56,792 bases of DNA from [Phormidium] sp. ETS-05 (lineage in GTDB: Bacteria > Cyanobacteriota > Cyanobacteriia > Cyanobacteriales > Laspinemataceae). The first letter of the stretch is position 1. The number at the start of each line of letters is the position of its first letter. The notes under the pieces are model-generated. The model was not told the origin of the DNA. It was given only the letters and a program-made list of their open reading frames with translations, and made no database searches. This document shows positions 17,981 through 52,375 of the stretch, piece by piece. The translations under genes were made by a program, and so were the position numbers. The stretch lies in the NCBI RefSeq assembly GCF_016446395.1, contig NZ_CP051168.1, positions 3,564,787-3,621,578 of the forward strand, given 5' to 3'.

Positions 17981-18053
<73 letters not shown>

Positions 18054-18152: not shown

Positions 18153-18204
<52 letters not shown>

Positions 18205-30637: not shown

Positions 30638-30748
30638 AGTCAATCCCTGAAAGGGATTCAACACACTGGTTATCAGTGGGAGGGCATTAGCCCGCAAGAG
30701 CGATGTACGAAATTTCAATCCCTGAAAGGGGTTCGAGTAATTTTTGCC
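30638..30748 (-). repeat. Degenerate two-repeat CRISPR mini-array in antisense orientation inside the cas operon
   Basis: 30712-30747 tttcaatccctgaaaggggttcgagtaatttttg matches the reverse complement of the array repeat at about 30 of 36 positions. 30638-30664 keeps the core caatccctgaaagggattc (19 of 19). The 74-bp spacing equals one repeat-spacer period. Confidence 0.6.
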
Positions 30749-30789: not shown

Positions 30790-30826
30790 TGTCTTCATAC
30801 ATTGTTCTTTAGTGCTGTGTATAATG
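30790..30826 (+). promoter_or_regulatory. Putative extended -10 promoter (TGTGTATAAT) upstream of the small ORF and the toxin-antitoxin pair
   Basis: gtgctgtgtataatgg at 30813-30826. Lies inside the cas operon, downstream of cas3'. Confidence 0.4.
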
Positions 30827-31702: not shown

Positions 31703-32132
31703 AAAATATATAGTTATAGCAAAAATAGATTTGATGGGCAAGTATTTGGAACGATTGCAGCGGTTTGAATCTGTGACCTTAGAACAATACCTCAATGATG
31801 GGGATATGCAGTTGGTCGTAGAAAGACTATTACAGCTAATCATTCAAATGGCGATCGACCTGAATCGGTACTTTTTGAAAGAATTAGGGATTGACCAACC
31901 AGAAACCAACGCTGAAGCATTCCACGCCGTCAGCCAATGTGGCATTATTCCCGATAATTTAGCCAAAAACATCGCTGGTTCGGTCAGCTTGCAAAATCGT
32001 TTGGTTCACGGCTATGATACAATCGATAGTGTTATCGTGCATGGTAGCATCAAGAAAGTATTGCAGTATTTTCCCATGTATCAAAAACAAGTCGGCAATT
32101 ATTTGGATTCTTTGGAGGACAAAAATGGCTAG
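31692..32132 (+). CDS. HepT-like HEPN-domain protein (DUF86-type toxin)
   Basis: The C-terminal NRLVHGYD fits the R-x2-H-x-Y part of the HEPN Rx4-6H motif. Size and tight coupling to the upstream NTase are typical of HepT/MntA modules. Confidence 0.5.
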   Translation: MTIEKYIVIAKIDLMGKYLERLQRFESVTLEQYLNDGDMQLVVERLLQLIIQMAIDLNRYFLKELGIDQPETNAEAFHAVSQCGIIPDNLAKNIAGSVSLQNRLVHGYDTIDSVIVHGSIKKVLQYFPMYQKQVGNYLDSLEDKNG

Positions 32133-35100
32133 AAAACGCAAGCAGCAAGATGAAGACAAGGAGCAGCAACTATCTTTATTTGATATTTTGCCCACGGCTC
32201 CCATATCTGAGCCGTCACATGATGATGATTCAGAGTTAGATGATAATGGGGATGATAGTGATTATGATGATGTGGAGCTTAGCTTTGACCCATCAGACCG
32301 AACCATAGAGCCAAAAGCGCCGGAGTTGCTGACGCTGAAACTGCTGCGAAAAGCTATTCTCGCGCAAAATCCCGATGATGCAGTGATGGAAGATTTCGCC
32401 GAATATGTGTTACCAAACCTGCTGCGAGTTGCCATCGCCGTCACCGCCAAAGGGGGTAAGTTTTTTGATAAACTTGATGCCCAGCGGCTGGCTGCAGGAA
32501 AGCCAAAACCTCGGCGTGATAATGCGGCTGACCAGTCGCTAAATAGTCATTTACTCAATGGCATATTTCCGGCGAATTTAATTGAGCAACGCCTGGAAAA
32601 GCTCGATACTACAGTGCGGCGATGCGTCAGGGAGCGGGAGCGCCGGTTACTAATTGCTGGGTTTATTCTCCACGACTTTGAGAAGTTTAATTATGACATA
32701 TTGCCCCAAATGCCCCAGAAATATCGGGACATTAGCAATAGCCAAAATCAGAAGATTCGGGACTTATCTGTGGCGGAACATCGGGAGATTGTGCAGGTCA
32801 TCGCTGATGAATTGCATCTGGGGCAGTTGATAGACCCGGAAAACCCAGAAGCATATCAGGAATATTTGGATGATTTGCTCGTTTTGGCGTATAATGCCCA
32901 GGTGCGGGAGGATACGAATTGGAATTTTTCGGTAGCGCACGGACTGCAGCCGGTATTGGACGATCGCACCCTCCGCTGTCTCGCTGCACTCACTTGCTTG
33001 GCAGATTCCTTTGCCTCAATTATCAAACACCCTCAAGATGCTGAACATAGGCGGTTTCAAGAACTATTACACAGTCTTAGTGATGGCCAACTAAAGCTAA
33101 GCTATCACGGCTTGACCGAAAATCGGGGAGTGTTGACAAACGCCGTGAATAACTCCCTCATCGAGGCTCACACCGCACTCAATACAAAAAACTGCACCTA
33201 CTATGAACCCCTGTTGTATTTGCCAACTGGTGTCATCTACTTGGCGCATAGAAATGCGCCACCAGTGCGGCTGGAAGACTGCCCCGAAAAAGTTGTCAGC
33301 CAGATTAAAAAACTCTGCGCCGGTCAGTTACGCGACAGACAAACCGGTTTTGGCCGCGATGGCAAAGGCATGAAATATGCCGAATATTATAACCTATTTT
33401 TTGACGATGTGGAGTTGATGCAAGTAGCTCTTAATGCCACCATGCGGATTTTGCCTAAAGGCAAATCTTCCGTAGCCCAAGACCGCAGCGACAATCTGAT
33501 AAAATTTCAGAAACAGGGGGTCTTACCCGCCGATTGGGATTTCCAGTTTGCCAACGATATCCGCATCGACCAACTGGCAGAATTTGGCGACCTAGTGAGC
33601 CGGAAAATTTGGGGCGATCGGGTCAGCAAAATTGAAAATTTCCGCAAACAAGACAAAAAAAATAAAAACCTGCCCCCAGTTCCCCCCTTGCAGATTATCG
33701 AAGAAGTTGCTAAACTATGGCAACTGTCGGATTATCTGCCCCAAATTCGGGAAATCCAGCGGCTGAATGAAAGGCTGAAGGAAAATAAGCTCAAAGGTAA
33801 CACTGGCGGCATACCCTACGAATGGTATTATTTAGCTGCCAAGTATCTAGAACGGCACCCAGGAGTTGAGGAGGTGCGGGAGATTTGCCAGCAAGCAATA
33901 GCACATATTGCCCAACTGATTCGACCCATCACCGCTCAGTATCAACTCCCCGATGGTTGGGAAGACTTGTGCCTATGGGTGCAGCGAGTTATCATACTCC
34001 CCAGCCAGCCAGAGTCCAACGCATCATTAGCAGTATTTGCCGATGAATTCCAGCGCTACATGATGGCGAAAAAATCTGGGCGAGGCAGGCAGTTAATCTG
34101 CTCAATTTCTCATTCCGCTTACACGGTGACAGAGCAAATGGAGTCAGCGGTTTTGTTTACCCCCCAGGTTTATACTAACAAACAAATGCTGGGAGGTTCT
34201 AACGCCAAGCGCAATATCTCCAGTATTGCCGGTATCGAGATGATGCTACGGCAAATCTTGATGAACCAAACCCAGGCGGTGGGCAAGAATTTTGAGGATG
34301 GCAAGTATCGTTATCTGTATTTCTATCCTACTTATTACTTCACCCCAGAAACTAACAAGTTTTTGCATCAAGCCTACACCGATATCGCCCAAACTCGTTT
34401 TACGCCTACTCTGCGCAATCACTTTATTAGCTCGGATTTGCAGGCAGATTTTACCAAAACCCGCTACCAAACTGTTGATAGTTTTTTGCTGGATGAAGCT
34501 ATTAAACCAGAAAAAGACCGCACATTTAAACTGTCTTATCCAGAAGACTTGCCCGTAACGTTTTACTTTATGGCACTGCCCACGCCGAAAAAAAGTAAAG
34601 ACCACAAACCCACGGATACGGAATCTTGGATTATGCCAGCTTGGTTGGCGTTTGCTTTCCCCATCATTATCGATGTGAAAACTGCGGTGTCTGAGTCTCC
34701 CATTCCGCCTTTTACTGATGGGGCGGAGTTTGAGGAAAGCGTATTTCTGGACAGTCCACCCCCAGCATTCCGGGTTTTGACCCAGCGCGATCGCTTCCGC
34801 ATTGACTACATCCTAGAAGGTTGGCAAGAAAACGGCAAGGAATATCCCTCACCTTTGAATGTCCTCACCGCCGCTTATGCCATTCATCTCGACGTGAATG
34901 CTCGCCAAGGCAAAAAAGGTTATGATGCCAACTGGGGTAAATTTGCCGAGTTAGCCACGGATTTTGAAACCAGCCCCCTCTCCGTATTTACTTATCTCAG
35001 TAAGTGGGGACGCCGCCAAGAAGCTGAAACCGCCAGCATTAAGAAAATTAAGCTCTATGCTTATCAATTTTACCCCTGTTTTGACCCCTACGTTCAATTT

Positions 35101-35631
35101 AAACCAGAATCGGAGGAATTAATTGTGGACGAAAAATCGCCATTACACCACCCCAAGCGATTGACCGAACTCTATCGCCAATTTTACCGAGCCAACAAGT
35201 TGTATAATCCTAAAGCTAACGCCGTGCTAAAACCCATTGATATTGCTGCCGATGTAATTCTCAAAGTTGACCCCTGTTTTTCGGGCGAAGCTCTCCCCGA
35301 TATGGTCGCTGCGGAAATCTGTAAACTGATGGATCGGGTTCACAGTTCCACCGCCGAAGGGCGTTGGGTATTTAAACGCGATGAACGAGAGCAAGAACGG
35401 GAAAAAATCGCCGAATTCGCTGCCTACTTTGTCCACGAGGTATTTGAGAATTCTTTTGGGGGCGATCGCGCCCGTTTAGCCGGACGACAACTAAACTACC
35501 TCCGCGACACCTGCGAATACCTGTATCGCTTAGAAAACGACAAAGAAATCCGCGCCAAAAAAGAACAATCCCCAGATAATGCGGAGGATAATTTTGACAA
35601 CGAAGAGGAAACAGAAGATGAAACACCATAA
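32125..35631 (+). CDS. cas10d: Cas10d large subunit (type I-D) with an N-terminal HD nuclease motif
   Basis: 1168 aa from the ATG at 32125 (GGAGGA SD), which overlaps the hepT stop. HD motif LIAGFILHDFEKF. Size and its position before csc2/csc1/cas6d are diagnostic of I-D. Confidence 0.7.
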   Translation: MARKRKQQDEDKEQQLSLFDILPTAPISEPSHDDDSELDDNGDDSDYDDVELSFDPSDRTIEPKAPELLTLKLLRKAILAQNPDDAVMEDFAEYVLPNLLRVAIAVTAKGGKFFDKLDAQRLAAGKPKPRRDNAADQSLNSHLLNGIFPANLIEQRLEKLDTTVRRCVRERERRLLIAGFILHDFEKFNYDILPQMPQKYRDISNSQNQKIRDLSVAEHREIVQVIADELHLGQLIDPENPEAYQEYLDDLLVLAYNAQVREDTNWNFSVAHGLQPVLDDRTLRCLAALTCLADSFASIIKHPQDAEHRRFQELLHSLSDGQLKLSYHGLTENRGVLTNAVNNSLIEAHTALNTKNCTYYEPLLYLPTGVIYLAHRNAPPVRLEDCPEKVVSQIKKLCAGQLRDRQTGFGRDGKGMKYAEYYNLFFDDVELMQVALNATMRILPKGKSSVAQDRSDNLIKFQKQGVLPADWDFQFANDIRIDQLAEFGDLVSRKIWGDRVSKIENFRKQDKKNKNLPPVPPLQIIEEVAKLWQLSDYLPQIREIQRLNERLKENKLKGNTGGIPYEWYYLAAKYLERHPGVEEVREICQQAIAHIAQLIRPITAQYQLPDGWEDLCLWVQRVIILPSQPESNASLAVFADEFQRYMMAKKSGRGRQLICSISHSAYTVTEQMESAVLFTPQVYTNKQMLGGSNAKRNISSIAGIEMMLRQILMNQTQAVGKNFEDGKYRYLYFYPTYYFTPETNKFLHQAYTDIAQTRFTPTLRNHFISSDLQADFTKTRYQTVDSFLLDEAIKPEKDRTFKLSYPEDLPVTFYFMALPTPKKSKDHKPTDTESWIMPAWLAFAFPIIIDVKTAVSESPIPPFTDGAEFEESVFLDSPPPAFRVLTQRDRFRIDYILEGWQENGKEYPSPLNVLTAAYAIHLDVNARQGKKGYDANWGKFAELATDFETSPLSVFTYLSKWGRRQEAETASIKKIKLYAYQFYPCFDPYVQFKPESEELIVDEKSPLHHPKRLTELYRQFYRANKLYNPKANAVLKPIDIAADVILKVDPCFSGEALPDMVAAEICKLMDRVHSSTAEGRWVFKRDEREQEREKIAEFAAYFVHEVFENSFGGDRARLAGRQLNYLRDTCEYLYRLENDKEIRAKKEQSPDNAEDNFDNEEETEDETP

Positions 35632-35818: not shown

Positions 35819-36832
35819 ATGGCTTTTTTAACCACCGTCGATGCCAAATATTTTCACACAGAAATCCCCTACAAACCGATGGGTAAATACGCCCACTTTC
35901 TCACCGTGCGCGTCACCGAATCTTATCCCCTATTTCAAACTGACGGCGAACTAAATAAAGCACGAGTCCGCGCCGGAATCCAAGACCCCACACCTATCAG
36001 CCGCCTTACCATGTTCAAGCGCAAACAGTCCACCCCAGAGCGGTTAGTAGGGCGGGAACTGCTGCGCAACTACGAACTAATGACCGCAGAAGAATGCGAA
36101 TATAACGTAAAATTCGCAATGGATAACCCCGACTGCATTATTTACGGCTTCGCTATTGGTGAATCCGGCTCAGAAAAATCCAAAGTGGTAGTAGATACCG
36201 CCTTCTCCATCACTCCTTTTGACGCCGCTCACGAAACTTTCACCCTCAACGCCCCCTATGAAAATGGCACAATGGCATCAAAGGGAGAAGGAGATAAAAA
36301 ACTGGGCGAAATCACCAGCCGCATCAACCAGCAAGACCACATCAAGCCACAAGTATTTTTCCCCAGCATCGTCACCCTGAAAGACCCCACCGAAGCAGGA
36401 TTTTTATACGTTTTCAATAACATCTTGCGCACCCGCCACTACGGCGCCCAAACCACCCGCACCGGGCGGGTTCGTAACGAATTAATTGGCGTCGTATTTG
36501 CCGACGGAGAAATTACCAGCAATCTCCGCTGGTCTCAGGCAATTTACGACGACATAAAAGCCAAAAACCTGCTGGGTTCTTTAGACCCCCTCAATGAAGA
36601 TGACGTTATCCAATCAGCCCAAAACACGATCGTAGCCCTCATGGCGGAAGAATTTATCGTTCACAGTGATTTTGTCGGCGACACCTTTGCCCCTTTGCTT
36701 CAAGAAGTGAAAGCTCTCACCAAAAGCGAAGCGGGAATCCGGGCGATTTTGCAGCAAGCCGATGCGGAAGCCAAAGCCTATGCTAAAAAGCACATCAAAC
36801 CGAAAAAAGCAGCCACAGCAGGGGAAAAATAA
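35819..36832 (+). CDS. csc2: Cas7d (Csc2) backbone subunit
   Basis: 337 aa, the typical Csc2 size. Position between cas10d and csc1. N-terminus MAFLTTVDAKYFH... is characteristic of the family. Confidence 0.65.
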   Translation: MAFLTTVDAKYFHTEIPYKPMGKYAHFLTVRVTESYPLFQTDGELNKARVRAGIQDPTPISRLTMFKRKQSTPERLVGRELLRNYELMTAEECEYNVKFAMDNPDCIIYGFAIGESGSEKSKVVVDTAFSITPFDAAHETFTLNAPYENGTMASKGEGDKKLGEITSRINQQDHIKPQVFFPSIVTLKDPTEAGFLYVFNNILRTRHYGAQTTRTGRVRNELIGVVFADGEITSNLRWSQAIYDDIKAKNLLGSLDPLNEDDVIQSAQNTIVALMAEEFIVHSDFVGDTFAPLLQEVKALTKSEAGIRAILQQADAEAKAYAKKHIKPKKAATAGEK

Positions 36833-37536
36833 TGGCAATTATTCATCGCTGTATGGTGGAACTACACGACAGTCTGTATTTTGCGACACGGGAAATTGGG
36901 CGGCTCTATGAAACTGAAGCCATCCTGCACAATTATGCTCTCTGTTACGCCCTCGGATTGGTGGATAACGCCGCCTATACTACCCAAGTAGCGGAAGAGG
37001 ATTCCTGCCGGTATTTTTGCGCGGAACAAGTGCCAAAATATGAACAGCATTTAACTGCCTTAAACCAAGCAGGCATTTACATCACGCCGGGACGCCCTGT
37101 CTCCCACGCTACCACCCTCACCACTTGGAAGTATGCCAACAACAACTATCACGTGGAGATGGAAAAAACCCAGAAAAACATTCCCAGTTTTGGCCGCAAC
37201 AAAGAAATAGCCCCAGAAAGCCAGTTTGAATTCTTCGCTATTTCCCCACAGCGGCTCAAATTCCCCCGCTGGATCCGCTTGGGCAAATGGGCGAGCAAAG
37301 CTGAGGTAGCAATTTTGGCCACTGAGGAGGTGAAACCATCGGCCAAAGAACAAGAGTTTACCTTTCCCTATCCCCTGAATCCTCTAGATGTGATGTTTAC
37401 CCATCAAATTTTCAGTTACGATACCATTAATATGCCCCCCGTTAGCCTGATTAGAAATGTAAAAATGCGCGGGCACTGCTATTATTGGGAAGAGCTGAAA
37501 CTGAAAATTCCCGCGATGATGCAATATCGGTTTTGA
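36832..37536 (+). CDS. csc1: Cas5d (Csc1) subunit
   Basis: 234 aa. 1-nt overlap with csc2. Conserved gene order. Confidence 0.6.
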   Translation: MAIIHRCMVELHDSLYFATREIGRLYETEAILHNYALCYALGLVDNAAYTTQVAEEDSCRYFCAEQVPKYEQHLTALNQAGIYITPGRPVSHATTLTTWKYANNNYHVEMEKTQKNIPSFGRNKEIAPESQFEFFAISPQRLKFPRWIRLGKWASKAEVAILATEEVKPSAKEQEFTFPYPLNPLDVMFTHQIFSYDTINMPPVSLIRNVKMRGHCYYWEELKLKIPAMMQYRF

Positions 37537-37614: not shown

Positions 37615-38484
37615 ATGCCACACAGTCTCGTCCTCAACATCCTACCCAAATCCCCCATCCCCCCCCAGTTTCTCACTGGGAGGCACTTGCACGCCCTTTT
37701 CCTCACCTTGGTTAGTGCTGTAGATAAAGATTTAAGCGACTACCTCCACAACCAAACTAATGATAAAGCCTTTACCTTGAGTCCTTGGCAAATTGCCGGA
37801 CAAAGGCGGTTTGAACATGGCATTTATTCCCTGGAATGGGAACATCAACAACCTATCCCCGCCGGGACGCAATGCTGGTGGCGCATCTCTCTGCTAGATG
37901 ATAGTTTATTCAGTCAACTGACCAAACTTTGGCTCAATCTTAATCCCCAACATCCTTGGCATTTGGGGCCAGCAGATTTGCTGATTACCAGCATTTTGGG
38001 AACACCGCAACCGGCGCAACCTTGGGCGAGTTTTGCTCCCTACGCTACCTTGTATGAAATGGCTTCGGAAACCGATCGGCAAATTGCTTTTAATTTTACC
38101 ACACCTGCCACTTTTCGGCAAGGGGAAAGTGATATGGCTCTCCCCACCAGGGAAGCAGTGTTTCACAGTCTGATTCACCGGTGGAATAAATACAGCGGCA
38201 TTGAGTTTTCCCATGATTTGAGTGAAAAAATTTTTCCCAGCTTTTTCAATATCCGCACCGCTGTAGTCAGCAACTACAAGAGCAAGTTAATTGGCTGTAT
38301 CGGTCAAATTAGCTACCGAATTTTGGGGGCTGCTGACACTTTGGCGATTAAGCAAATTAATGCTTTAGCTGATTTCGCTCTTTACGCGGGAGTGGGGCGG
38401 AAAACCCCGATGGGGATGGGGATGGTGCGGCGAGTTGATCCGAATCAAAAAACATCTAAACAGTCAGGACAAAATTATGCTTGA
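37615..38484 (+). CDS. cas6: Cas6d repeat-processing endoribonuclease
   Basis: 289 aa. C-terminal glycine-rich loop GVGRKTPMGMGMV is typical of Cas6. Position before cas4-cas1-cas2. Confidence 0.7.
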   Translation: MPHSLVLNILPKSPIPPQFLTGRHLHALFLTLVSAVDKDLSDYLHNQTNDKAFTLSPWQIAGQRRFEHGIYSLEWEHQQPIPAGTQCWWRISLLDDSLFSQLTKLWLNLNPQHPWHLGPADLLITSILGTPQPAQPWASFAPYATLYEMASETDRQIAFNFTTPATFRQGESDMALPTREAVFHSLIHRWNKYSGIEFSHDLSEKIFPSFFNIRTAVVSNYKSKLIGCIGQISYRILGAADTLAIKQINALADFALYAGVGRKTPMGMGMVRRVDPNQKTSKQSGQNYA

Positions 38485-39070
38485 TATTGATTATATTCCC
38501 ATTGCGGCGCTGAATCAATATGCTTACTGCTCTCACCGCTGCTGGCGGATGTTTTGCGCTGGGGAATTTGTGGATAATCATTATACCATTGAAGGCACGA
38601 GTTTGCATAGTCGGGTTCACAGTTTTGGCGAAGGTATCCGGGAAGATGTGGAGCAAATTCGCGCCATTTGGCTGAAGTCGGAGCAGTACAAGTTGATTGG
38701 TAAATCGGATTTGATTGAAACTGTGGATGGGGAGTGGTATCCCGTGGAATATAAACGGGGACGCAAGGGAGAATGGGATAATGATGAGTTGCAGGTAGCA
38801 GCCCAGGCTTTATGTTTGGAAGAAATGACGGGTAAAACCATTACTGGCGGCTATATTTATTATGCCAGTTCTTACCAGCGGCAGTTGGTGGAAATTTCCC
38901 CAGAATTGCGGGGGCAGACTCTGGCAACTATTGCGGAAGTTGCCAAGTTATTCGCGACGGGGGCAATGCCGAAACCTACTTATAATCCCCGTTGTCGTGG
39001 GTGCAGTTTGTCTGCTGCTTGTTTGCCCCAAGCTGCCGCGAAAATTGGTCGTTATCAAGAATTGAATTAG
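38477..39070 (+). CDS. cas4: Cas4 (RecB-like nuclease with a four-Cys cluster)
   Basis: Start at the ATG at 38477, overlapping the cas6 end. N-terminal Cys (YAYCSHRCW) and C-terminal CRGCSLSAAC form the Fe-S cluster ligands. Confidence 0.8.
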   Translation: MLDIDYIPIAALNQYAYCSHRCWRMFCAGEFVDNHYTIEGTSLHSRVHSFGEGIREDVEQIRAIWLKSEQYKLIGKSDLIETVDGEWYPVEYKRGRKGEWDNDELQVAAQALCLEEMTGKTITGGYIYYASSYQRQLVEISPELRGQTLATIAEVAKLFATGAMPKPTYNPRCRGCSLSAACLPQAAAKIGRYQELN

Positions 39071-39174: not shown

Positions 39175-40179
39175 ATGGGAACTGTTTATGTGGTGCAAGA
39201 TGATGCTTTTGTGGGAAAAACTGATGAACGGTTGACGGTAAAAGTCGGGAAAGATAAGCCCCTAGAGGTGCCTTTACTGATGATAGATGGGCTGGTTGTG
39301 TTGGGACGAGCGACGATTTCTCCCGCAGCTATTCTGGAGTTACTAGAGCGGCATATTCCGGTATCTTTTCTCAGTCAGAATGGGCGTTATTTGGGAACGC
39401 TAGAACCAGAGTTGAGTAAAAATATTTTTGTGAGAGCTGCTCAGTGGCAAGCTGCGGGTCATTCTGAACTGGCGGTGGGGGCTGTGCGGGGTTTTGTGCG
39501 GGGTAAGTTGAAGAATTACCGCCATATTTTGCAGCGGCGAGAGCGGGAAAATGCAGACCTGAATTTAGCTGATGGGATTGCTAAGTTAGAATCGGCGATA
39601 TCGCCGATTAATGCTACTGATAATATTGACAGTCTCCGGGGATTAGAGGGTGCTGGTAGCGCGGCTTATTTTGGCTGTTTTAATCAGCTAATTCGGGGGG
39701 ATGGGTTTGAATTTACTGCAAGGCGGCGGCGTCCTCCTACTGACCCAGTAAATGCGCTGTTGAGTTTTGGTTATGCTTTGCTGCGCCATGATGTGCAAGG
39801 GGCGGTAAATACGGTGGGTTTTGACCCCTATTTGGGCTATCTCCATTACCAGCGTTATGGTCGCCCTTCTTTGGCGCTGGATTTAATGGAGGAGTTTCGG
39901 CCTTTGGTGGTAGATACAATTGTTTTAGCTGCGATTAATAAGCGGACTCTGACCGTGAATGATTTCGTTACCGAGCCTTTGAGCGGTGCGGTTTCTTTGA
40001 CTCAAGAAGGATTGCGCACTTTTCTGCGGCTTTATCAGGAGAAAAAGCAGTCTAAGTTTAAGCATCCGGTGATGGGGCGGCAATGTACTTATCAAGAAGC
40101 CTTTGAGATTCAAGGGCGCTTGTTGGCGAAGTATTTGATGGGGGAAACTGACCAATATCCGCCCCTGGTTTTGAAATAA
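39175..40179 (+). CDS. cas1: Cas1 integrase
   Basis: 334 aa. N-terminal beta-sandwich MGTVYVVQDDAFVGKTDERL. Conserved catalytic-region residues (E...H...E pattern). Sits immediately upstream of cas2. Confidence 0.88.
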   Translation: MGTVYVVQDDAFVGKTDERLTVKVGKDKPLEVPLLMIDGLVVLGRATISPAAILELLERHIPVSFLSQNGRYLGTLEPELSKNIFVRAAQWQAAGHSELAVGAVRGFVRGKLKNYRHILQRRERENADLNLADGIAKLESAISPINATDNIDSLRGLEGAGSAAYFGCFNQLIRGDGFEFTARRRRPPTDPVNALLSFGYALLRHDVQGAVNTVGFDPYLGYLHYQRYGRPSLALDLMEEFRPLVVDTIVLAAINKRTLTVNDFVTEPLSGAVSLTQEGLRTFLRLYQEKKQSKFKHPVMGRQCTYQEAFEIQGRLLAKYLMGETDQYPPLVLK

Positions 40180-40185: not shown

Positions 40186-40265
40186 GTCATTGGTCATTGG
40201 TCATTGGTCATTTGTCCTTTGTTTGGATAGAACAAGGGACAAATGACAAGGGACAAAGGACAAAG
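40186..40265. repeat. Dyad-symmetric heptamer repeat block
   Basis: ttggtcattggtcattggtcattggtcatttgtcctttgtttggatagaacaagggacaaatgacaagggacaaaggacaaagg. Confidence 0.85.
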
Positions 40266-40286
40266 GAAATCAGTTTAGGAGTGGTT

Positions 40287-40559
40287 ATGAATGTTGTGAT
40301 TTCTTATGATGTTTCTGAAGATAAGCGCCGCAATAAAATCCATAAAGTGTTAAAATCTTATGGTCAGCGGGTGCAGTATAGTGTGTTTGAGTGTGAGCTT
40401 ACGGATACTCAATATGCGAAACTCAGGTCCCGCTTGAGTAAGTTGATTAAGCCGGAGGAGGACAATATCCGTTTTTACTCCCTCTGCGCTTGTTGCTTTG
40501 GTAAGGTCGATCGGATTGGCGGACCGTCGCCGGTGGATAGGACCATCTTCTTCGCTTAA
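40287..40559 (+). CDS. cas2: Cas2
   Basis: 90 aa, MNVVISYDVSEDKRRNKIHKVLKSYGQRVQYSVFEC... with the conserved N-terminal Asp. The track's upstream extension lies in the repeat block. Confidence 0.88.
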   Translation: MNVVISYDVSEDKRRNKIHKVLKSYGQRVQYSVFECELTDTQYAKLRSRLSKLIKPEEDNIRFYSLCACCFGKVDRIGGPSPVDRTIFFA

Positions 40560-40816
40560 CCCGATTTTGCGCGGAGGGGTAGGTGTTGGGAGAGGGCAAT
40601 CAAAATTTTCGCCTGGAACCGTTGACGGGCAAGGTTTTGAGCCCTATTAGAGAAAAAATCGAGCCGCGCAAATCCTGAAACCCTTATGGCACAAGCATTA
40701 GAGCGAAATTTTTTTTCAACCCCCTTGACAGCCCAGGAGCTGAAATGGTATTTTTAGATCGATTCGCGCAAATGCACCTTGAAAACTGCATATTCCAAGG
40801 GTTCCAGGAGCCCGCT
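40560..40816 (+). promoter_or_regulatory. CRISPR leader with a putative promoter (-35 TTGACA at 40725-40730)
   Basis: AT-rich. Ends at the first repeat. A duplicate of this leader precedes array 1. Confidence 0.7.
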
Positions 40817-43800
40817 CCCGAAATTTACCCGAATCCCTTTCAGGGATTGAAACCTCCGCAAATACAATTACTCATCCCCTGCTCGCTGTACCCGAAATTT
40901 ACCCGAATCCCTTTCAGGGATTGAAACTGGAGGAGGCATACCTCTGGTAATTTCGATCACCCTCCCGAAATTTACCCGAATCCCTTTCAGGGATTGAAAC
41001 CTGGATATCCAGGGATTGGGCGGGGATGAAAACCGTCCCGAAATTTACCCGAATCCCTTTCAGGGATTGAAACCCCCCCGTGCTAATTAGTCTCCGGTGG
41101 TGTAGCTCCCGAAATTTACCCGAATCCCTTTCAGGGATTGAAACCTCAGAGATGAGGAGGAAAAGGCCCAGAAGTTGGGCAAACCCGAAATTTACCCGAA
41201 TCCCTTTCAGGGATTGAAACTCTGAATACCAGACAGTCACATGCTGATATCCCTTGGACCCCGAAATTTACCCGAATCCCTTTCAGGGATTGAAACCAAG
41301 CTCACATCAAGAAACTGGCTTTCGATTATGACCCGAAATTTACCCGAATCCCTTTCAGGGATTGAAACGACTAGCAGGCAAAGCCTTAATCCCATTGCCT
41401 TTGGACCCGAAATTTACCCGAATCCCTTTCAGGGATTGAAACCATTCCCACCACTGAAGTACCTCCCAGTCGGGGAAACCCGAAATTTACCCGAATCCCT
41501 TTCAGGGATTGAAACTCATCCCAGGATTCTTTTGGTGGTTCCATTCCATACCCGAAATTTACCCGAATCCCTTTCAGGGATTGAAACTAAGAAACAACGT
41601 GCCGGGGAGAGGGGAGCGATCGCCCCGAAATTTACCCGAATCCCTTTCAGGGATTGAAACAAAAAATGTCCCCACGGCGTCGGGGGAGGCAAAGGGGCCC
41701 GAAATTTACCCGAATCCCTTTCAGGGATTGAAACTTTGAGGCTGTCGAGCCTCAACACCACCGCCGTATCCCCGAAATTTACCCGAATCCCTTTCAGGGA
41801 TTGAAACCTTTGGGGGCTTCTCTTTCTCCTAGGACTGCGCCGTGCCCGAAATTTACCCGAATCCCTTTCAGGGATTGAAACATTGTTGGCCCACTCCCCC
41901 CACTCAAACTGTAGTCGGCCCGAAATTTACCCGAATCCCTTTCAGGGATTGAAACAAGGCTGGCGTGACGGCTAAATTTGGCGGTTTCCGCCACCCGAAA
42001 TTTACCCGAATCCCTTTCAGGGATTGAAACGCGTCCCCGATGCCGGCCCCCATCACGGGCCCCTATTTCCCGAAATTTACCCGAATCCCTTTCAGGGATT
42101 GAAACTTGAGAAGTATCTGATAAATCGCTAAATAATGCGACCCCCGAAATTTACCCGAATCCCTTTCAGGGATTGAAACACACGGTTTTTGGTGGTGTCA
42201 CATAGGGACTACATACCCCGAAATTTACCCGAATCCCTTTCAGGGATTGAAACATGGTATAATCCCGTTAGCAGATAGACTAAAAAGCGGCCCGAAATTT
42301 ACCCGAATCCCTTTCAGGGATTGAAACGGGGGGACTTTGTTTTTTGTTACGGGAATCAAACATCCCGAAATTTACCCGAATCCCTTTCAGGGATTGAAAC
42401 TTAAAGACGGTGAGGAATTTTTCATCCGAGCATCAAACCCGAAATTTACCCGAATCCCTTTCAGGGATTGAAACGAGCAACAACCCAATCAACCAGATTC
42501 GCCATACTTTCCCGAAATTTACCCGAATCCCTTTCAGGGATTGAAACCTCACTTTGCCCCATCTGCAGCTGGCGACGAGCCGCACCCCCCGAAATTTACC
42601 CGAATCCCTTTCAGGGATTGAAACGCGCTTCATTTCTAGTTCGCGCTTTACCCAATACCACAGCCCGAAATTTACCCGAATCCCTTTCAGGGATTGAAAC
42701 TAAATTCCCACGGTGTTTCACCTACAGGCGATCGCCCGCCCGAAATTTACCCGAATCCCTTTCAGGGATTGAAACATCACCTTGGGTAGCGATGACCTGC
42801 CCCCGCAAAAAGAAGCCCGAAATTTACCCGAATCCCTTTCAGGGATTGAAACCATTAATTTCGGCGTCGAAATTCCCACGGTGGTTCCCGAAATTTACCC
42901 GAATCCCTTTCAGGGATTGAAACCAGTCAATTGAACTAGCTTTAACAACAGGCGACAACATCCCGAAATTTACCCGAATCCCTTTCAGGGATTGAAACAG
43001 GATGACGGTGTTGGGGGGGACCCCCTCAGGTATGGGTCCCGAAATTTACCCGAATCCCTTTCAGGGATTGAAACAAATTTCCCGTCGTGGCCGCGCTTCA
43101 TTTCTAGTTCGCCCCGAAATTTACCCGAATCCCTTTCAGGGATTGAAACACATCATCTAACTTGTTTGAGGGGGAGACAGCAACAAAGCCCGAAATTTAC
43201 CCGAATCCCTTTCAGGGATTGAAACTAATAGATAGTGCGGACATATCCGCATATACCCTTCCCCGAAATTTACCCGAATCCCTTTCAGGGATTGAAACTC
43301 GGAAAAAGTCCGAGCCACAGTGCCGGTCGCGGTAGCGCCCGAAATTTACCCGAATCCCTTTCAGGGATTGAAACTAGTCGTACTGATTGATAGTCCCCAC
43401 AATTGATGGTGTCCCGAAATTTACCCGAATCCCTTTCAGGGATTGAAACAGCAGTAAGGGCAGACTTGATGGCCTCAGCCTTGGTGCCCCGAAATTTACC
43501 CGAATCCCTTTCAGGGATTGAAACTGGTTTCCCTTCGTGAGGCGATCGCGCAGATACCGGATCCCGAAATTTACCCGAATCCCTTTCAGGGATTGAAACC
43601 CAACCTAGAACAAGTTTCAGTAACTCCATCAACCGACCCGAAATTTACCCGAATCCCTTTCAGGGATTGAAACCCTTTACGTTTATCCCTGCCAAGATTG
43701 CGGATAACCAAGCCCGAAATTTACCCGAATCCCTTTCAGGGATTGAAACTCTCCAGTCTGGCATCCCGCCAAGACCACACCCACCCGAAATTTACCCGAA

Positions 43801-45442
43801 TCCCTTTCAGGGATTGAAACCAGTTATCGGGCCGGCCTTCAACCATTCCTAGAGGCCTCGAAATTTACCCGAATCCCTTTCAGGGATTGAAACCTCAGCT
43901 CCGTCTAATTTGTACCACAAATCAAACACCCGAAATTTACCCGAATCCCTTTCAGGGATTGAAACTATTTGCCCTGACTCATAAGCCACAATGCCATCAG
44001 ATCCCGAAATTTACCCGAATCCCTTTCAGGGATTGAAACAGTCTCTGTGGCTCCAGCGCAGCCACTGCCACGACTCCCGAAATTTACCCGAATCCCTTTC
44101 AGGGATTGAAACCTTATGGGATAGTGTGTACGCCATAAGAAATAGTGTACCCGAAATTTACCCGAATCCCTTTCAGGGATTGAAACTGCATCCGAGTAGT
44201 GACTGCTTGGTATTGTCCCACCACCCGAAATTTACCCGAATCCCTTTCAGGGATTGAAACATCGGCGAAACAACTCTGTGGCAGCTTTGCCTGTACCCCG
44301 AAATTTACCCGAATCCCTTTCAGGGATTGAAACGGCCATTCTTTATCGTCTGGCGCTTTACGAAGGTTGGCCCCGAAATTTACCCGAATCCCTTTCAGGG
44401 ATTGAAACGTACACCTGATTCTTGGCACGCCGAAATCGGCGAGCCCGAAATTTACCCGAATCCCTTTCAGGGATTGAAACAAGTTTTTTCTTTGGGTTTG
44501 TTTTTCTCCTTATTTGCCCCCGAAATTTACCCGAATCCCTTTCAGGGATTGAAACCGCGTAGCTTCTCACCCACGATTTGAAGTGTGAGCGATCCCCGAA
44601 ATTTACCCGAATCCCTTTCAGGGATTGAAACTCATTAAAAGCGACTGCATTTATCTGGGCTGCTCTGTACCCGAAATTTACCCGAATCCCTTTCAGGGAT
44701 TGAAACTAATTTTCGGTGTAATTATCCTCCTATTTGTAAGCCCGAAATTTACCCGAATCCCTTTCAGGGATTGAAACAAATGTACTCATGTTTTTCCTCT
44801 CCTATTTTTAGCCCGAAATTTACCCGAATCCCTTTCAGGGATTGAAACTTGCAGTTCGCCAAACAGGCCATTCGCTGTCCCCTCCACCCCGAAATTTACC
44901 CGAATCCCTTTCAGGGATTGAAACAAACCAGTCTATATTTGTGCCTTGCACCTGCTGGATAAGTCCCCGAAATTTACCCGAATCCCTTTCAGGGATTGAA
45001 ACCTTACTCTGATTGTTGGTATTAAGCTGATTAAGACCCGAAATTTACCCGAATCCCTTTCAGGGATTGAAACTGCAAATATTGAGGCTTCATCTAGCAG
45101 ATAAATCACCCGAAATTTACCCGAATCCCTTTCAGGGATTGAAACATATTCAGGAAAGCGGTAGGCGCGCAAACGCCTGCCGACCCGAAATTTACCCGAA
45201 TCCCTTTCAGGGATTGAAACATATTCAGGAAAGCGGTAGGCGCGCAAACGCCTGCCGACCCGAAATTTACCCGAATCCCTTTCAGGGATTGAAACCAAGG
45301 TAAACACAGATGTATCGTTATTTCACCGCATGCACCCGAAATTTACCCGAATCCCTTTCAGGGATTGAAACACATACCCCACAAATATGCGGTTCATTCA
45401 GCCGTCCCGAAATTTACCCGAATCCCTTTCAGGGATTGAAAA
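40817..45442 (+). CRISPR. CRISPR array 2: about 63 repeats of the same 37-bp repeat, about 62 spacers of 34-40 bp
   Basis: Regular period of about 74 bp from 40817. Terminal repeat (45406-45442) ends ...GATTGAAAA. One internal variant repeat (about 43857, cTcgaaattt). One duplicated repeat-spacer unit (45146-45258). Confidence 0.95.
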
Positions 45443-45443: not shown

Positions 45444-47850
45444 TCAGGAAATAGGGACGATACAGTGGGGAAATTGGCTTTTTAATGCCGGAATCACTGG
45501 ACAAGGAGCTTGAGTTTCGGTTGATTCGGGTTTAGTCCAACTAAAAGGGGCGTTCTTAGCTGCTGACATCCACAGCAAACGTTTTGCTCGGGTCATCGCC
45601 ACATAAAGTAACCGGTATTCTTCCGCAGTTTTCAGGTCTTGAGCTTGTTTCCAGGCAGTTTCTGGGTCGGGTAGTTCTTTCCCGTGCAGGTGGGCGCGAA
45701 TTTGCGCCCTCGCTACTTCGGCGAGGGAATATTCCCCCAGAAATTGTCTGGGTGGGGGCACCCAAAGATTACCAGGGATAACCTTTTCATGCAAAAAAGG
45801 GAGAAACACCCAGTCCCAGTCCAGTCCTTTGGCTTTGTGCATGGTGATGATGGTGAGGCGACCTTTTTTGGTGTAAACAGACTCGTGGGGGTCTTCTTCT
45901 GTATCCACCGGCTCGAATTTTTCGGTGTTGACAATTTCCTCGAGCAGTTCTAAAACGGCGGTGAGGGAATGTTGGCGATAGGTTTGCCTGGAGACTCGAT
46001 CGGCCACTTTATCGGCGGTAGCGAGTTCGGCGGGGCTGTAGTTCAGATTAAAAGCGATCAAGGATATGAGCTGATATAGGGGGACTTCTAGGCGTCCGTG
46101 GAGGAGGTTGATGCAAAACTGGCGGGCTTGGTTGACAGTTTCTGACTGTTTTGGGTCTAGGGGTCCGGGGTAGAGGAATTGTTCGGGGGCAGCGGCGAGG
46201 GCGTTGGTGTCTAGGGAGGCAATGATATTTCTATCGATGAAGACTCGCAAGGCGGCTTTCAGGTAGTCGGGGGAATGGGGGCGGTGGAGAAATTGCAGGA
46301 TAGCGAGGAGTTCGGCGGGGACTTGGGAACGTCGATCGCCCCCGCCACTTCATATACTTCTATCCCCTGCTGCGCCAAATTAACTTTAATGTTGTAACTC
46401 TCTGGGTTAGCCAGGATATCGGCGATAAATTTCCCCTGGCGGTTTTCCCGTACCAACACGGCAGCCGATCGGTCTTTCTCCCGCCCAAATAACTCTACCA
46501 CCCGCCGTCCTATCAACTCCACCGTATGATAAATATCTCTGGGAGTGTAAATTTCCAATCCCAACCCCGTGGGAGCCGGGTTAGCATCTTTTGCGGGTCT
46601 CCCGCTGACACAGATTTAATATCCTGCGGCTCAAACGGCGTCTCGCGTTTTGTATTTGAATTATCTTTTCTGTTTAGCTCGCGGCTCCTACCCCCGCCCA
46701 GATAATTATCTCCCTCATCGCTGATTTTCGCCCTGCGATTATTTACCCAATGCAGCATAAAATTAGCCGCATCAATAATAATTTGGCTACTGCGTCCCGC
46801 CCTATCCATACGAGCAAACCGGCCTTCCTTTTGGCATTCCTCACAGAAACGGCGAAAATAAATCGGGTCAGCGGGAGTAAAAGTAGAGTTAATCGCTTGA
46901 TTCGGGTCGCCAACCCGGATTAAATTAGGTGGGGCATCGGGATTTTCCGGGTCAGTGGCGAGGATTTCTAGGAGTTTGGTTTGTAACGGGGTCGAGTCTT
47001 GGGCTTCATCTTCAAACACAGCCAAAATTTTCTGCTGCCAAATTTTCCTCGCTTCCGGGTTATCTAAAACCCGCTCACCGGCGATAATCATATCATCATA
47101 ATCAATAACCTGTCTGGCTCTGAGGAGATTTTCGTATTCTGTATAAAGTCCCGCCGCAATTTCCATAACTTGATACTCATCTGGGGGCACTTGTGCCGCC
47201 AACTCCCGCAACTTCCCTGGCAATAAACCGGAAGATTTCGCCTCGTGAATGACTGTAGTGGCCAATTCTGGTAAAACTTCTGTGCGTAATACAGACATCC
47301 GCCGCAGTCTTTCCGTCTCTTCCCCGTCAAAATTAATTTCTACCAGTAATTGATAGTGGCGGGGATGGGCTGTTATCCACTTTTCCACGCAAGTTTTGAT
47401 TAATTGATTGCTCTTGTTGGGTGAGATTACAGTTACTTCCTCGGAACTGATACCGGAGATTTGGGGATGTTGGACAGCAATATGGAACGCTAAACCGTGG
47501 AGGGTATAGACAAAAAACCCCCTTGGTGGTACGAGCAACTGTTTAAGGGCTTCTCGGATTTTAGCTTTGATGTTAGCAGCAGCCGATCGGGTAAAAGTCA
47601 CCACAACCAAATCCCCCTGAGAAGAGAAACCCGACAAATTTCTCGCCGCCAGGGTAAGAGCCGCCGCATCCGCCATCCCCTTAGACTTTCCCGCTCCGGG
47701 AACGGCAGAAACTGCCAAAGGACCACCCCGCCAGTCCGCCATCTCTCGCTGTCCAGAACGTAACCCCTCCCGCAGGCGTTGTTTCGCCTGCTCCCGCTGT
47801 GCTTCTAATGTCAATTTGTCTTTTGTCACTTGTCCTTTGTCCTTTGTCAC
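45444..47850 (-). pseudogene. UvrD/PcrA-like superfamily-1 helicase, fragmented into three ORFs (45444-46250, 46259-46564, 46513-47850) plus an uncovered gap
   Basis: N-terminal Walker A AVSAVPGAGKS and a VFEDEAQD motif. C-terminal TIITMHKAKGLDWDWVFL (UvrD_C). Frame changes at about 46255, 46565 and 46690, and the ORF C-termini read as out-of-frame garbage. Confidence 0.6.
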
Positions 47851-47960
47851 TTGTCACTTGTCCTTTGTCACTTGTCACTTGTCACTTGTCCCTTGTTCGC
47901 TTGTATGATAAACAAATGACCAAGGACAAATGACAAAGGACAAATCACCAAGGACAAATC
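47815..47960. repeat. Dyad-symmetric heptamer repeat block with the conserved CTTGTTCGCTTGTATGATAAACAAA core
   Basis: Same architecture and core as 21488-21760. Confidence 0.85.
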
Positions 47961-47965
47961 ACCAA

Positions 47966-50377
47966 CTACAAAACATCCAGTAATTTATCTACTACCTGTT
48001 TCCAGGTAAAATGCTGCCGGACAAATTCTGGGCCATTGCGGCGGGCTTGTTGCCGATAACTATCCGATTCTATAATAACATTCATTTGGTGAATTAAACT
48101 ATCTAAATCAGGATATAATAACCATAAATTATCTTCACCGAATTTCAATTGATTAAGACGGCTATCTATGGGTAAAGCAAAATCTGGATGAGTGAAATCA
48201 TCGGTAGAACCGCCTTGAGTGCAGATAACGGGTAAACCGCAAGCTGCAGCCTCCAAAACTGGCATATTAAACCCTTCGGCTAAATAAGGAGAAACATAAG
48301 CATCCGCCGCTTGATAGAGGCGAATGATTTCCGCCGCTGATAGGCTTTTGCCGATATAGGCGAGGCGCGGTTCTACTAGGGCAATTTCTGCATCGTTGAG
48401 GACAGACTGAGCCGCATCGGTTAAAAATTGGGTGGATTCAAATAAAGGCTCCGCTCCTTTAAAGACTAACCTAGCTTGGGGATAGTGTTCCGCAATGGCG
48501 GCAAAAGCCTTTAACAGGGGACGGATACCTTTATTATCGGATAAAATGCCGATATTTAAAAACACGAAACAATTTTCTATCCCCATTTGTTGCCGCAATG
48601 TTTGCCGGTCTGATGGGGGCAGGGGTTTGTAGATATCCGTATCCACTCCGAGAGGCACGACAAAAACGCGATCGGCTGGGGCACCACTGCGGAGAAACCC
48701 GGATTTTGACCAATGGGAAGGGGTGATAATGATAGTCTCATTGTTGAGAGCTTCGGGAAACGAGGCCACCCCTATCCCGGCGAGCATTGATTTGGTGACG
48801 ATGCCTGCTTCCGTGGTGCAAAATACTGCTGTGCGTTGAGCATTGCCCGGTTTAAAATTATAGGGGATAGCCATGCGCAGTATCACATCGGCAAAGTGAT
48901 TAGGTGGTGGCGGGGGAATTTGATTTAATTTCGCGGCAGTATCGGCATCAAATAGGTTGATGTTTGGTTGCCAAGAGGATTTTAAATAGGGGACATCCCG
49001 ATGGAAAAGCTGAATTTGGGGACGTTGGCGCAGTTCCAGGAGCTGATATTGGTTGGCGATCGCGTAGGAATGGGGTAAAAATCGCCAACCTTCCACCACC
49101 AGGCTGCGGGTAGTGACTGGCTGGGATATCTGAGTTTGACTGGGGGGAGACAGTGACATATCTGGAGCAAGAATATTTAACAGTTGAGAAAGAGTATGTT
49201 TCCAGGTGAAACGCTGCTGCACCCACGCCGGACCGGTTTGGCGAGCTTTAGTAGTAATTTTAGTATCTAGGGCCGCCTCCATCAGAGCGATTAAACTATC
49301 TTTATCCGGGATAACGGCTAGTCCTTGGTCTTCTTCTGGGAGGATGATGGTTTTACGCTGGCTGGGGATATAAAGGGTAAAATCAGGATGAGTAAAGTCA
49401 TCCGTGGGACCGCCTTGAGTGCAGATAACGGGTAAACCGCAGGCGGCGGCTTCCAAAACTGGCAGGTTGAAGCCTTCGGCGAGGTAGGGGGAGATGTAGG
49501 CGTCGGCGGCTTGGTAAAGGCGAGCCAGTTCTGGACTAGATAAGTTATCACCGATGTAGGTTATCCGCTCTGAGATAAAAGCCGCTTCTCTATCCGTGAG
49601 TACCCGGCGGCTGATGTTTACCAGAGCTTCTCGCGAGGGAAACAGAGCATCTCGACCTTTTAACAATAGTCTGACGTGGGGATATTTTTGGGCGACTATG
49701 GCAAAAGCCTTGAGCAGTAACCCTATTCCCTGGGAACTACCGCACATTAACCCCACATTCAAAAAGACGAAGCATCCTTCTAAACCTAACTGTTGCCGCC
49801 ATAACTCCCTTTGGGCCGCATCGGCGGGGTGATAAATGCTGGTATCAACCCCTAGGGGGACAACTGCCAATTTACTCGGGTCGGCTCCACTGCGCAGTAA
49901 CCCTTCTTTGGACCAGTGGGACGGTGTGATGATAATAGCATCAGAGTTAGCCTGTGCTGCTGTGAGGAAGGAAACTCCCATCCCCCGCAACACTGCTTTT
50001 TCTAATATTCCCCATTCCACGCAGACAAATACTCCTGTGCGTTTGGCATCCCCCAACCCCCGATGATCGGGGGGCGAAAAGGAGGAAAGGTTGAAAGGAC
50101 AGTAAACCCGCCAGAGAGCGTCAGGGGAGACGGGGGAGGGGGACGGGGGGACGTTGAGAAACCCGGTTTCTAGGCTGTCCAAAACGGCGGCGGCTTCGGG
50201 ACCGAGGAGCCCTGGGACGGGTTGCCAGTCTGGGCTAAGATAGGGGGCGTCCTGATGCCAAACCTCTAGCTGCGGGTGGCGGAGCATTTCCAGGAGCAGA
50301 AATTGATTGATAATGGCATAGGAATGGGGGATGTGTCTCCATCCCTGGACAATAAGGCGTAATTTGCCCTTGGTCAT
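47966..50377 (-). CDS. Tandem-duplicated GT4-family glycosyltransferase (two complete GT-B units in one 800-aa protein)
   Basis: Two homologous halves, each starting (V)VQGWRxxPHSYAIxNQ and ending with the GT4 E-x7-E motif (AEGFNLPVLEAAACGLPVICTQGG) followed by DF(T)HPDF. Likely start at the M encoded at 50377 (MTKGKLRL); upstream codons lie in repeats. Confidence 0.65.
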   Translation of the reverse strand: MTKGKLRLIVQGWRHIPHSYAIINQFLLLEMLRHPQLEVWHQDAPYLSPDWQPVPGLLGPEAAAVLDSLETGFLNVPPSPSPVSPDALWRVYCPFNLSSFSPPDHRGLGDAKRTGVFVCVEWGILEKAVLRGMGVSFLTAAQANSDAIIITPSHWSKEGLLRSGADPSKLAVVPLGVDTSIYHPADAAQRELWRQQLGLEGCFVFLNVGLMCGSSQGIGLLLKAFAIVAQKYPHVRLLLKGRDALFPSREALVNISRRVLTDREAAFISERITYIGDNLSSPELARLYQAADAYISPYLAEGFNLPVLEAAACGLPVICTQGGPTDDFTHPDFTLYIPSQRKTIILPEEDQGLAVIPDKDSLIALMEAALDTKITTKARQTGPAWVQQRFTWKHTLSQLLNILAPDMSLSPPSQTQISQPVTTRSLVVEGWRFLPHSYAIANQYQLLELRQRPQIQLFHRDVPYLKSSWQPNINLFDADTAAKLNQIPPPPPNHFADVILRMAIPYNFKPGNAQRTAVFCTTEAGIVTKSMLAGIGVASFPEALNNETIIITPSHWSKSGFLRSGAPADRVFVVPLGVDTDIYKPLPPSDRQTLRQQMGIENCFVFLNIGILSDNKGIRPLLKAFAAIAEHYPQARLVFKGAEPLFESTQFLTDAAQSVLNDAEIALVEPRLAYIGKSLSAAEIIRLYQAADAYVSPYLAEGFNMPVLEAAACGLPVICTQGGSTDDFTHPDFALPIDSRLNQLKFGEDNLWLLYPDLDSLIHQMNVIIESDSYRQQARRNGPEFVRQHFTWKQVVDKLLDVL

Positions 50378-50560
50378 TTGTCCTTGGTCATTTGTCCTTT
50401 GTCCTTGGTCATTTGTCCTTTGTACCTTGTTTTTGTTCATACAAATGAAAACAGCGAATTTTAATGATGATTATTGGTCTTAAACTTTCATACAAGTGAG
50501 GAAACACAAGATGCAAGGGAAAAATGACAAGGGACAAGGGACAAATAACCTTTGTCCAAA
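50365..50560. repeat. Dyad-symmetric heptamer repeat block
   Basis: TTGGTCA/TTTGTCC arm, AT-rich centre, GGACAAG/GGACAAA arm. Confidence 0.8.
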
Positions 50561-52235: not shown

Positions 52236-52375
52236 TTTGGTCATTTGTCATTTGTCCCTTGCCCTTTGTCATTTGATAATTGACAATTGATAATTGATAA
52301 TTGACAATTGTCCCTTGTTCTTTGGGGACAAAGGACAAGGGACAAGGGACAAGGGACAAATGACAAATGACAAAT
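52236..52375. repeat. Composite dyad repeat block: TTTGTCA arms flanking a CAATTGT-family palindromic core
   Basis: tttggtcatttgtcatttgtcccttgccctttgtcatttgataattgacaattgataattgataattgacaattgtcccttgttctttggggacaaaggacaagggacaagggacaagggacaaatgacaaatgacaaa. Confidence 0.85.

Follow-up and report, generated by a model that had tools for sequence, protein, structure and literature searches.

The window, a stretch of 56,792 nucleotides from the cyanobacterium [Phormidium] sp. ETS-05, carries an intact type I-D CRISPR-Cas locus, and the long array of this locus holds two pairs of partly overlapping spacers. On the simplest reading of the sequence, spacers 31 and 25 derive from a single piece of foreign DNA, on which their protospacers lie 18 nt apart and on one strand. 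Spacers 28 and 26 appear to stem, with a 16-nt offset, from another stretch that existed in two closely similar versions, with 2 of 18 positions different. The overlapping pairs fit primed adaptation, short of proof. We consider primed or interference-driven adaptation to be the best single explanation for them, at a little under an even chance.

Performing profile searches, we found that all eight cas genes of the locus score far above the cut-offs of the I-D NCBIfam models. They lie in the following order, and the 63-repeat array comes after cas2.

28455-30635, + strand: cas3', the type I-D helicase (NCBIfam TIGR03158 cas3_cyano, E 2.8e-111)
32014-35631, + strand: cas10d/csc3, the type I-D signature large subunit (TIGR03174 cas_Csc3, E 2.2e-293, profile positions 1-946 of 946)
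35819-36832, + strand: csc2 (cas7d) (TIGR03157, E 6.3e-107)
36832-37536, + strand: csc1 (cas5d) (TIGR03159, E 7.2e-62)
37615-38484, + strand: cas6 (TIGR01877, E 7.2e-21)
38435-39070, + strand: cas4, the PAM-selecting adaptation nuclease (TIGR00372, E 2.6e-47)
39175-40179, + strand: cas1d (TIGR04093 cas1_CYANO, E 1.8e-127, exceeding the curated cut-off)
40197-40559, + strand: cas2 (TIGR01573, E 3.7e-22)

The PAM-selecting role of Cas4 was described by Kieper et al. 2018 (PMC5896167). Between cas3' and cas10d the locus is interrupted by an MntA/HepT toxin-antitoxin pair and a mini-array. The cas10d coordinates are those of the open reading frame as listed, and the real start is probably further downstream, near the end of HepT. 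Cas10d is 63-70% identical to four annotated cas10d products on cyanobacterial plasmids and 45% identical to a fifth; the plasmid alignments begin at query residues 88-118.

Each defining feature of type I-D that is testable here was found, and the system is a clear member of this subtype. The signature subunit Cas10d/Csc3 is present, as are a stand-alone Cas3' helicase, Csc2 (Cas7d) and Csc1 (Cas5d) (TIGR03158, TIGR03157 and TIGR03159, respectively). The adaptation module cas4-cas1d-cas2 adjoins the leader and the array, and a 5'-GTN-3' PAM stands upstream of the protospacer in six of the seven PAMs that we could read. The preliminary description of this DNA had proposed a type I system; the profile matches bear this out, define the subtype as I-D and show both the adaptation and the interference genes to be intact. 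The type I-D systems of Synechocystis sp. PCC 6803 (CRISPR1) and Microcystis aeruginosa have the same gene set (cas3'-cas10d-csc2-csc1-cas6-cas4-cas1-cas2), a likewise variable spacer length (33-45 nt here) and a GTN PAM on the 5' side (PMC5896167). The present locus differs from them in its host, a filamentous cyanobacterium of Oscillatoriaceae-like type, in having two arrays whose leaders are duplicated, and in the toxin-antitoxin pair and mini-array placed between cas3' and cas10d.

The two arrays and the leader of the longer one are placed as follows.

40817-45442, + strand: CRISPR array A2, 63 repeats of 37 nt and 62 spacers, the last repeat degenerate
16901-17905, + strand: CRISPR array A1, 14 repeats and 13 spacers, with repeat and leader as in A2, the last repeat degenerate
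40560-40816, + strand: leader of array A2, between cas2 and the first repeat

The total of 13 + 62 spacers agrees with the roughly 75 claimed earlier. A cas2 fragment (16447-16770) precedes A1, and the 300 nt upstream of A1 and of A2 are 97% identical. The 37-nt repeat, CCCGAAATTTACCCGAATCCCTTTCAGGGATTGAAAC, has sharp boundaries: the flanking columns are unbiased over 77 copies, and the three 5' C's are almost invariant. All 63 repeats of A2 are in register and identical, save the last base of the terminal repeat. The 3' end of the repeat is ATTGAAAC, which we take to be the usual 8-nt crRNA 5' handle. The shared leader, the degenerate terminal repeats and this repeat end together indicate that both arrays are read on the + strand, so that spacer 1 of A2 (at 40854, leader-proximal) is the newest. 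The order of acquisition is therefore spacer 31, then 28, then 26, then 25. Spacers 59 and 60 of A2 are an exact duplicate, which shows that repeat-spacer units of this array do get duplicated. Among the 13 spacers of A1 we found no overlapping spacers.

The first overlapping pair joins these two spacers.

42625-42663, + strand: spacer 25, 39 nt; begins with the same 20 nt with which spacer 31 ends
43075-43112, + strand: spacer 31, 38 nt; the older partner of spacer 25

Comparing all 75 spacers against each other, we found the longest non-duplicate match to be the 20-mer GCGCTTCATTTCTAGTTCGC. In a shuffled-spacer baseline of 30 shuffles the longest match was usually 10-12 nt, and 13 and 15 nt were reached once each. 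The window contains this 20-mer just two times, at the start of spacer 25 and at the end of spacer 31; in 100 shuffles two matches of it never turned up. By an arithmetic estimate, the chance that a conserved motif at a random place would meet both end conditions is about 1/380. Since the shared segment reaches the end of spacer 31 and the start of spacer 25, the two protospacers would lie on one strand of one molecule with an offset of 18 nt. The spacer coordinates, the 20-nt segment at opposite ends and the 18-nt same-strand offset had all been put forward from first inspection of the letters, and all proved exact. The sharp repeat boundaries over the 77 copies rule out that the 20-mer is part of a mis-delimited repeat, a refutation that had been foreseen. 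The stretch reconstructed from this pair (stretch A) is AAATTTCCCGTCGTGGCCGCGCTTCATTTCTAGTTCGCGCTTTACCCAATACCACAG, 57 nt long.

The second pair lies inside the interval spanned by the first, and all four spacers (31, 28, 26 and 25) fall within a 7-spacer stretch.

42701-42738, + strand: spacer 26, 38 nt; of its 18 opening nt, 16 agree with the closing 18 nt of spacer 28
42853-42886, + strand: spacer 28, 34 nt; the older partner of spacer 26

Here the suffix of spacer 28 and the prefix of spacer 26 overlap with a 16-nt offset, in the same end-to-end geometry as spacers 31 and 25, and they have in common the exact 14-mer AAATTCCCACGGTG. The two mismatches in the overlap indicate that the spacers were taken from two variants of a sequence. 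The overlap would imply two mismatches of crRNA 28 against the later variant. The reconstructed stretch (stretch B) reads CATTAATTTCGGCGTC[G/T]AAATTCCCACGGTG[G/T]TTCACCTACAGGCGATCGCCCG, 54 nt. The preliminary description had assigned a common motif to three spacers (42701, 42853 and 43075) and had deduced a repeat-containing target from it. The motif holds for spacers 26 and 28, as the 14-mer and the 16/18 match show, and fails for spacer 31, whose local alignment scores against spacers 26 and 28 rank only 1784th and 454th of 5402 spacer pairs. With its third member at chance level, the three-way motif gives no support to a repeat-containing target. A coding-repeat reading of the motif was also rejected: the frames disagree between the spacers, and the likeness of spacer 31 is at chance level.

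To see how far such overlaps extend, we turned to other arrays. The same repeat was found in only two other sources, the MAG Oscillatoriaceae cyanobacterium M33_DOE_052 and two short JACCEE-accession contigs; JGI metagenome contigs Ga0209172 carry the same arrays as the MAG. The flank of A1 is 86-90% identical to the MAG, which points to a related filamentous cyanobacterium as the source of the window. No spacer is common to the window and the MAG, which indicates that the arrays turn over. Performing an end-overlap scan of 310 unique spacers of this repeat, we obtained four strong partial overlaps, namely the two window pairs and the first two pairs below. As an added comparison we scanned 161 spacers of three cyanobacterial plasmid I-D arrays (Stanieria, Picosynechococcus and Pseudanabaena), and these contributed the third pair alone.

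Array L008, spacers 8 and 9: 22/22 overlap, same strand, adjacent in the array
Array L010, spacers 2 and 4: 18/18 overlap, opposite strands
Array L018 (Pseudanabaena I-D array), spacers 20 and 61: 19/20 overlap, opposite strands, 41 positions apart

The first scan also returned two near-identical full-length pairs (33/34 and 36/37), which are one protospacer in two arrays and one array in two assemblies. The rest of its matches were at the 12/14 level, which shuffles also produced. Block duplications are present in the Picosynechococcus array.

Each overlap exposes the three bases upstream of one or both protospacers, and in this way we read seven PAMs.

Window spacer 26: GTC (read from spacer 28)
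Window spacer 25: GCC (read from spacer 31)
L008 spacer 9: GTA
L010 spacer 2: GTT
L010 spacer 4: GTC
L018 spacer 20: GTC
L018 spacer 61: GTA

Six of the seven are GTN (P ~4e-7), the PAM established for type I-D in Synechocystis (PMC5896167; PMC10212523). This agreement confirms the orientation of the arrays and shows that the overlaps are true protospacer overlaps. The exception is spacer 25, a non-consensus acquisition, so that one of the two newer window spacers has a GTN PAM and the other has not. In the opposite-strand pairs, L010 2/4 and L018 20/61, the PAM of each spacer lies inside the protospacer of the other.

The overlapping spacers are also close together in the arrays. All four partial-overlap pairs of the 310-spacer scan lie within one array and 1-6 positions apart; a random pair would be that close with a probability of 0.035, and all four with a probability of 1.6e-6. 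When 7 spacers are drawn uniformly from one target, the probability of at least two such pairs falls with target length, from 0.017 (2 kb) through 0.003 (5 kb) to 3e-5 (40 kb), while a sampled region of 1-2 kb gives P = 0.02-0.06 for two overlapping pairs. The probability thus stays low unless the region is about 1-2 kb or less, which argues that uniform naive sampling is insufficient and that a local source of prespacers is needed. In both window pairs the partners are on the same strand, and the newer spacer, the one closer to the leader, is displaced in the PAM-distal direction relative to its older partner. Over the five pairs in total the direction is mixed: in L008 the newer spacer lies upstream of the older, and the L010 and L018 pairs join spacers of opposite strands. 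The GC content along A2 showed no significant autocorrelation (0.06, p = 0.26) and no blocks suggesting acquisition bursts.

We also looked for the invader. Searched against PLSDB plasmids and INPHARED phages, all 75 spacers gave nothing beyond chance, and the only matches of stretches A and B were 23-mers, one of them HIP1-based and in a Nostoc plasmid, the others in enteric phages. The exact 20-mer GCGCTTCATTTCTAGTTCGC had no target in viral, genome or metagenome contigs (IMG/VR, GTDB and JGI). Other spacer segments matched viral contigs at chance level; neither of the two viral-contig matches of a degenerate 17-mer, of which one is in a giant-virus MAG, extends beyond 19 nt. Peptides from the six open reading frames of stretches A and B had no match among 5.8 billion proteins, and the overlapping pairs of the related arrays had no targets in viral contigs. 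Within the window we saw no self-target match longer than a 13-mer. Two motif matches inside cas5d (12/14 each) were considered as a self-target and dropped, as they do not extend (25/54 and 20/54 identical). The remaining spacers, 27, 29 and 30 among them, showed no end overlap of at least 9 nt beyond chance that would lengthen stretch A or B into a contig.

Priming lets type I systems renew their immunity against escaping phages and plasmids, and it has been shown for subtypes I-B, I-C, I-E and I-F. If it produced the window pairs, the crRNA of the older spacer, loaded in the I-D Cascade, would recognise the invader; in the case of spacers 28 and 26, crRNA 28 would recognise a variant with two PAM-distal mismatches. 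Degradation by Cas3'/Cas10d around the recognised site would then supply fragments, which Cas4-Cas1-Cas2 may trim at GTN, inserting a neighbouring piece at the leader. Speaking for this route are the intact I-D genes for interference and adaptation, an array orientation that fixes which partner is older, overlaps that run exactly end to end, their close spacing in the arrays, their low probability under uniform sampling, the GTN PAMs and the turnover of spacers. The two mismatches in the 28/26 overlap are also as expected if an old spacer with an imperfect match had primed. Against it stand the GCC PAM of spacer 25, which is atypical of primed acquisition, the mixed directions in the related arrays, the 41 positions between the L018 partners, the lack of a GC burst signal along the array and the failure to find a protospacer in any collection searched. 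A review from 2023 found priming data lacking for type I-D (PMC10212523).

The preliminary description had taken clustered, overlapping, same-strand acquisition as the hallmark of primed adaptation. This picture is not specific, as a naive acquisition hot spot gives the same one. In such a crRNA-independent hot spot, a single infection or the entry of one plasmid would leave a few fragments at a restriction cut, a stalled fork or a free DNA end. Cas4-Cas1-Cas2 would sample these again and again, and spacers from one region of a few dozen base pairs would enter the array close in time. Naive-adaptation hot spots have been described for types I-E and II-A at DNA ends, Ter sites and restriction cuts, and they too involve repeated sampling of one short region, with no need for a pre-existing spacer. 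The same overlaps result from any local source of fragments, and uniform sampling is unlikely. The pairs in which each PAM lies inside the partner would follow from a single ~60-bp fragment being readable from both of its ends, and naive uptake accounts better for the non-GTN PAM of spacer 25. Published work documents naive I-D adaptation that draws on repair-derived fragments (PMC10212523; PMC5896167). However, spacers 28 and 26 come from two sequence variants, which argues for two encounters rather than one fragment pool, and the L018 partners stand 41 spacers apart; in both respects the arrays differ from the I-E and II-A hot spots and suggest separate encounters. We regard a naive hot spot as rather unlikely, yet as the main rival and one to be taken seriously.

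Chance overlaps would also arise where few PAM-flanked sites are on offer, if spacers had been acquired independently at different times from a tiny or highly abundant replicon or from mobile elements related to each other. The P of 0.02-0.06 for two pairs among 7 spacers in a 1-2 kb region leaves room for this, as does the origin of spacers 26 and 28 from different variants. Such a source needs all or most of spacers 25-31 to stem from at most 2 kb, but no end overlaps of at least 9 nt link the other spacers into a contig and PLSDB holds no matching cyanobacterial plasmid; we judge it improbable. We give hardly any weight to an artefact, that is, a mis-delimited repeat, an assembly error or an array rearrangement that copied part of one spacer into another. 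Rearrangements do occur, as the exact duplicate 59/60 and the block duplications in the Picosynechococcus array show. Nevertheless, the 63 repeats are in register and identical save for the one terminal base, a suffix in one spacer and prefix in the other cannot arise by unit duplication, and the same geometry with GTN PAMs recurs in independent assemblies.

Compared with the primed adaptation known from I-E, I-F, I-B and I-C systems (E. coli, Pectobacterium, Haloarcula and others), the window pairs share several traits. An older and a newer spacer come from the same short stretch of an invader and stand near each other in the array, the subtype likewise has a Cas3 and a Cascade complex, and in one pair the older spacer imperfectly matches the source variant of the newer one. 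They differ in belonging to I-D, a subtype with no priming data according to the 2023 review (PMC10212523). Only two pairs are at hand here, they are known from the array alone, and one of the new spacers has a PAM off the consensus; from this sample one cannot read the rules of strand and direction by which known priming patterns are defined.

Overlapping spacers are an expected by-product of known adaptation routes and, as such, an ordinary CRISPR phenomenon. Beyond the hint of priming, the pairs are routine array content that adds little without the invader sequence. Bidirectional degradation has been reported for type I-D. Tentatively, and with somewhat less assurance than for the window pairs, we propose that natural arrays record primed or interference-driven I-D adaptation, in which new spacers would be taken within 12-21 nt of an older protospacer, overlapping it, sometimes on the opposite strand, with GTN PAMs. 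If true, this would be the first evidence, though indirect, for I-D priming, and would be a sign that I-D priming draws its new spacers from right at the target site, which agrees with the bidirectional degradation. Close-set overlapping spacers with correct PAMs in natural I-D arrays serve as cheap circumstantial evidence for priming in this subtype, and the reconstructed protospacer stretches of 57 and 54 nt provide concrete test sequences for it.

Directly past cas3′ of the type I-D CRISPR-Cas locus lies a mini-array, and a toxin-antitoxin pair sits between cas3′ and cas10d. The elements are as follows.
30639-30745, minus strand: mini-array, directly past cas3′
30745-30712, minus strand: degenerate repeat of the mini-array
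30711-30661, minus strand: 51-nt pseudo-spacer of the mini-array
30660-30639, minus strand: partial repeat of the mini-array
30791-30816, plus strand: putative target of the pseudo-spacer
31247-32132, between cas3′ and cas10d: MntA (nucleotidyltransferase antitoxin) and HepT (RNase toxin), a type VII toxin-antitoxin pair

Comparing the plus strand at 30794-30816 with the 5′ part of the pseudo-spacer, we find 13/16 and 17/23 positions matching. This matching stretch is immediately preceded by GTC, which agrees with the GTN PAM published for type I-D systems. A perfect TATAAT is present just downstream of it (30820-30825), and the mntA-hepT genes begin about 430 nt past this site. Such an arrangement has been described for I-D loci that carry toxin-antitoxin genes as cargo between cas3 and cas10d (Shmakov et al. 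2023, bioRxiv 10.1101/2023.03.03.530964), and the mini-array, the putative target and mntA-hepT of the window conform to it. At the position of the MntA/HepT pair, the I-D loci of Anabaena sp. 90 and of Dolichospermum plasmids also exhibit HepT-like or DUF86 genes.

The arrays themselves also carry duplications. In the long array A2 (40817-45442), spacers 59 (45146-45183) and 60 (45221-45258) have the same sequence; therefore, one repeat-spacer unit was tandemly duplicated near the trailer end. The I-D array of Picosynechococcus PCC 7117 (L017) likewise shows a block duplication, of seven spacers (spacers 9-15 = 32-38). Upstream of the shorter array A1 lies a cas2 fragment (16447-16770), and A1 and A2 share 97% identity over the 300 nt in front of them. 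Judged from this sequence identity and the cas2 fragment, a unit of the cas2 end, leader and array has been copied to another site at a distance of about 23 kb (16447-17905 versus 40516-45442). Two tRNA genes are located beyond A1.
17981-18053, minus strand: tRNA gene
18138-18204, minus strand: tRNA gene

Spacers 2 and 4 of a related array with the same repeat (L010), and spacers 20 and 61 of a Pseudanabaena plasmid I-D array (L018), derive from opposite strands. Within each pair, the overlap covers 18-20 nt at the PAM-proximal ends of the two protospacers, and the GTN PAM of each spacer lies inside the protospacer of its partner. This symmetric geometry would be expected if either end of a single short fragment could serve for its capture.

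Of the 75 window spacers, 4 (A1 spacer 9; A2 spacers 11, 26 and 37) contain the cyanobacterial HIP1 octamer GCGATCGC. Its density, from small numbers, is 1.44 per kb in these spacers, compared to 0.23 in the whole window and 0.52 in the 310 unique spacers of the window arrays and related arrays. Few as the counts are, a possible explanation is that the invaders are cyanobacterial elements rich in HIP1, or that HIP1 sites are favoured in acquisition.

Past A2 lies a UvrD/PcrA-like helicase, probably a disrupted gene, whose N-terminal and C-terminal ORFs are separated by a 101-aa ORF.
45444-47850, minus strand: UvrD/PcrA-like helicase, split over at least two ORFs, directly past A2
46513-47850, minus strand: ORF of its N-terminal part
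45444-46250, minus strand: ORF of its C-terminal, RecB-like part

Tandem heptamer tracts (TTGTCAC, GACAAAG and similar) occupy many intergenic sites of the window, frequently as facing inverted pairs, and are similar to the short tandemly repeated (STRR-like) sequences of cyanobacteria.
2517-2814, 13699-13774, 21490-21756, 47809-47972, 50363-50546, 52273-52374, 55432-55592: examples of tandem heptamer tracts
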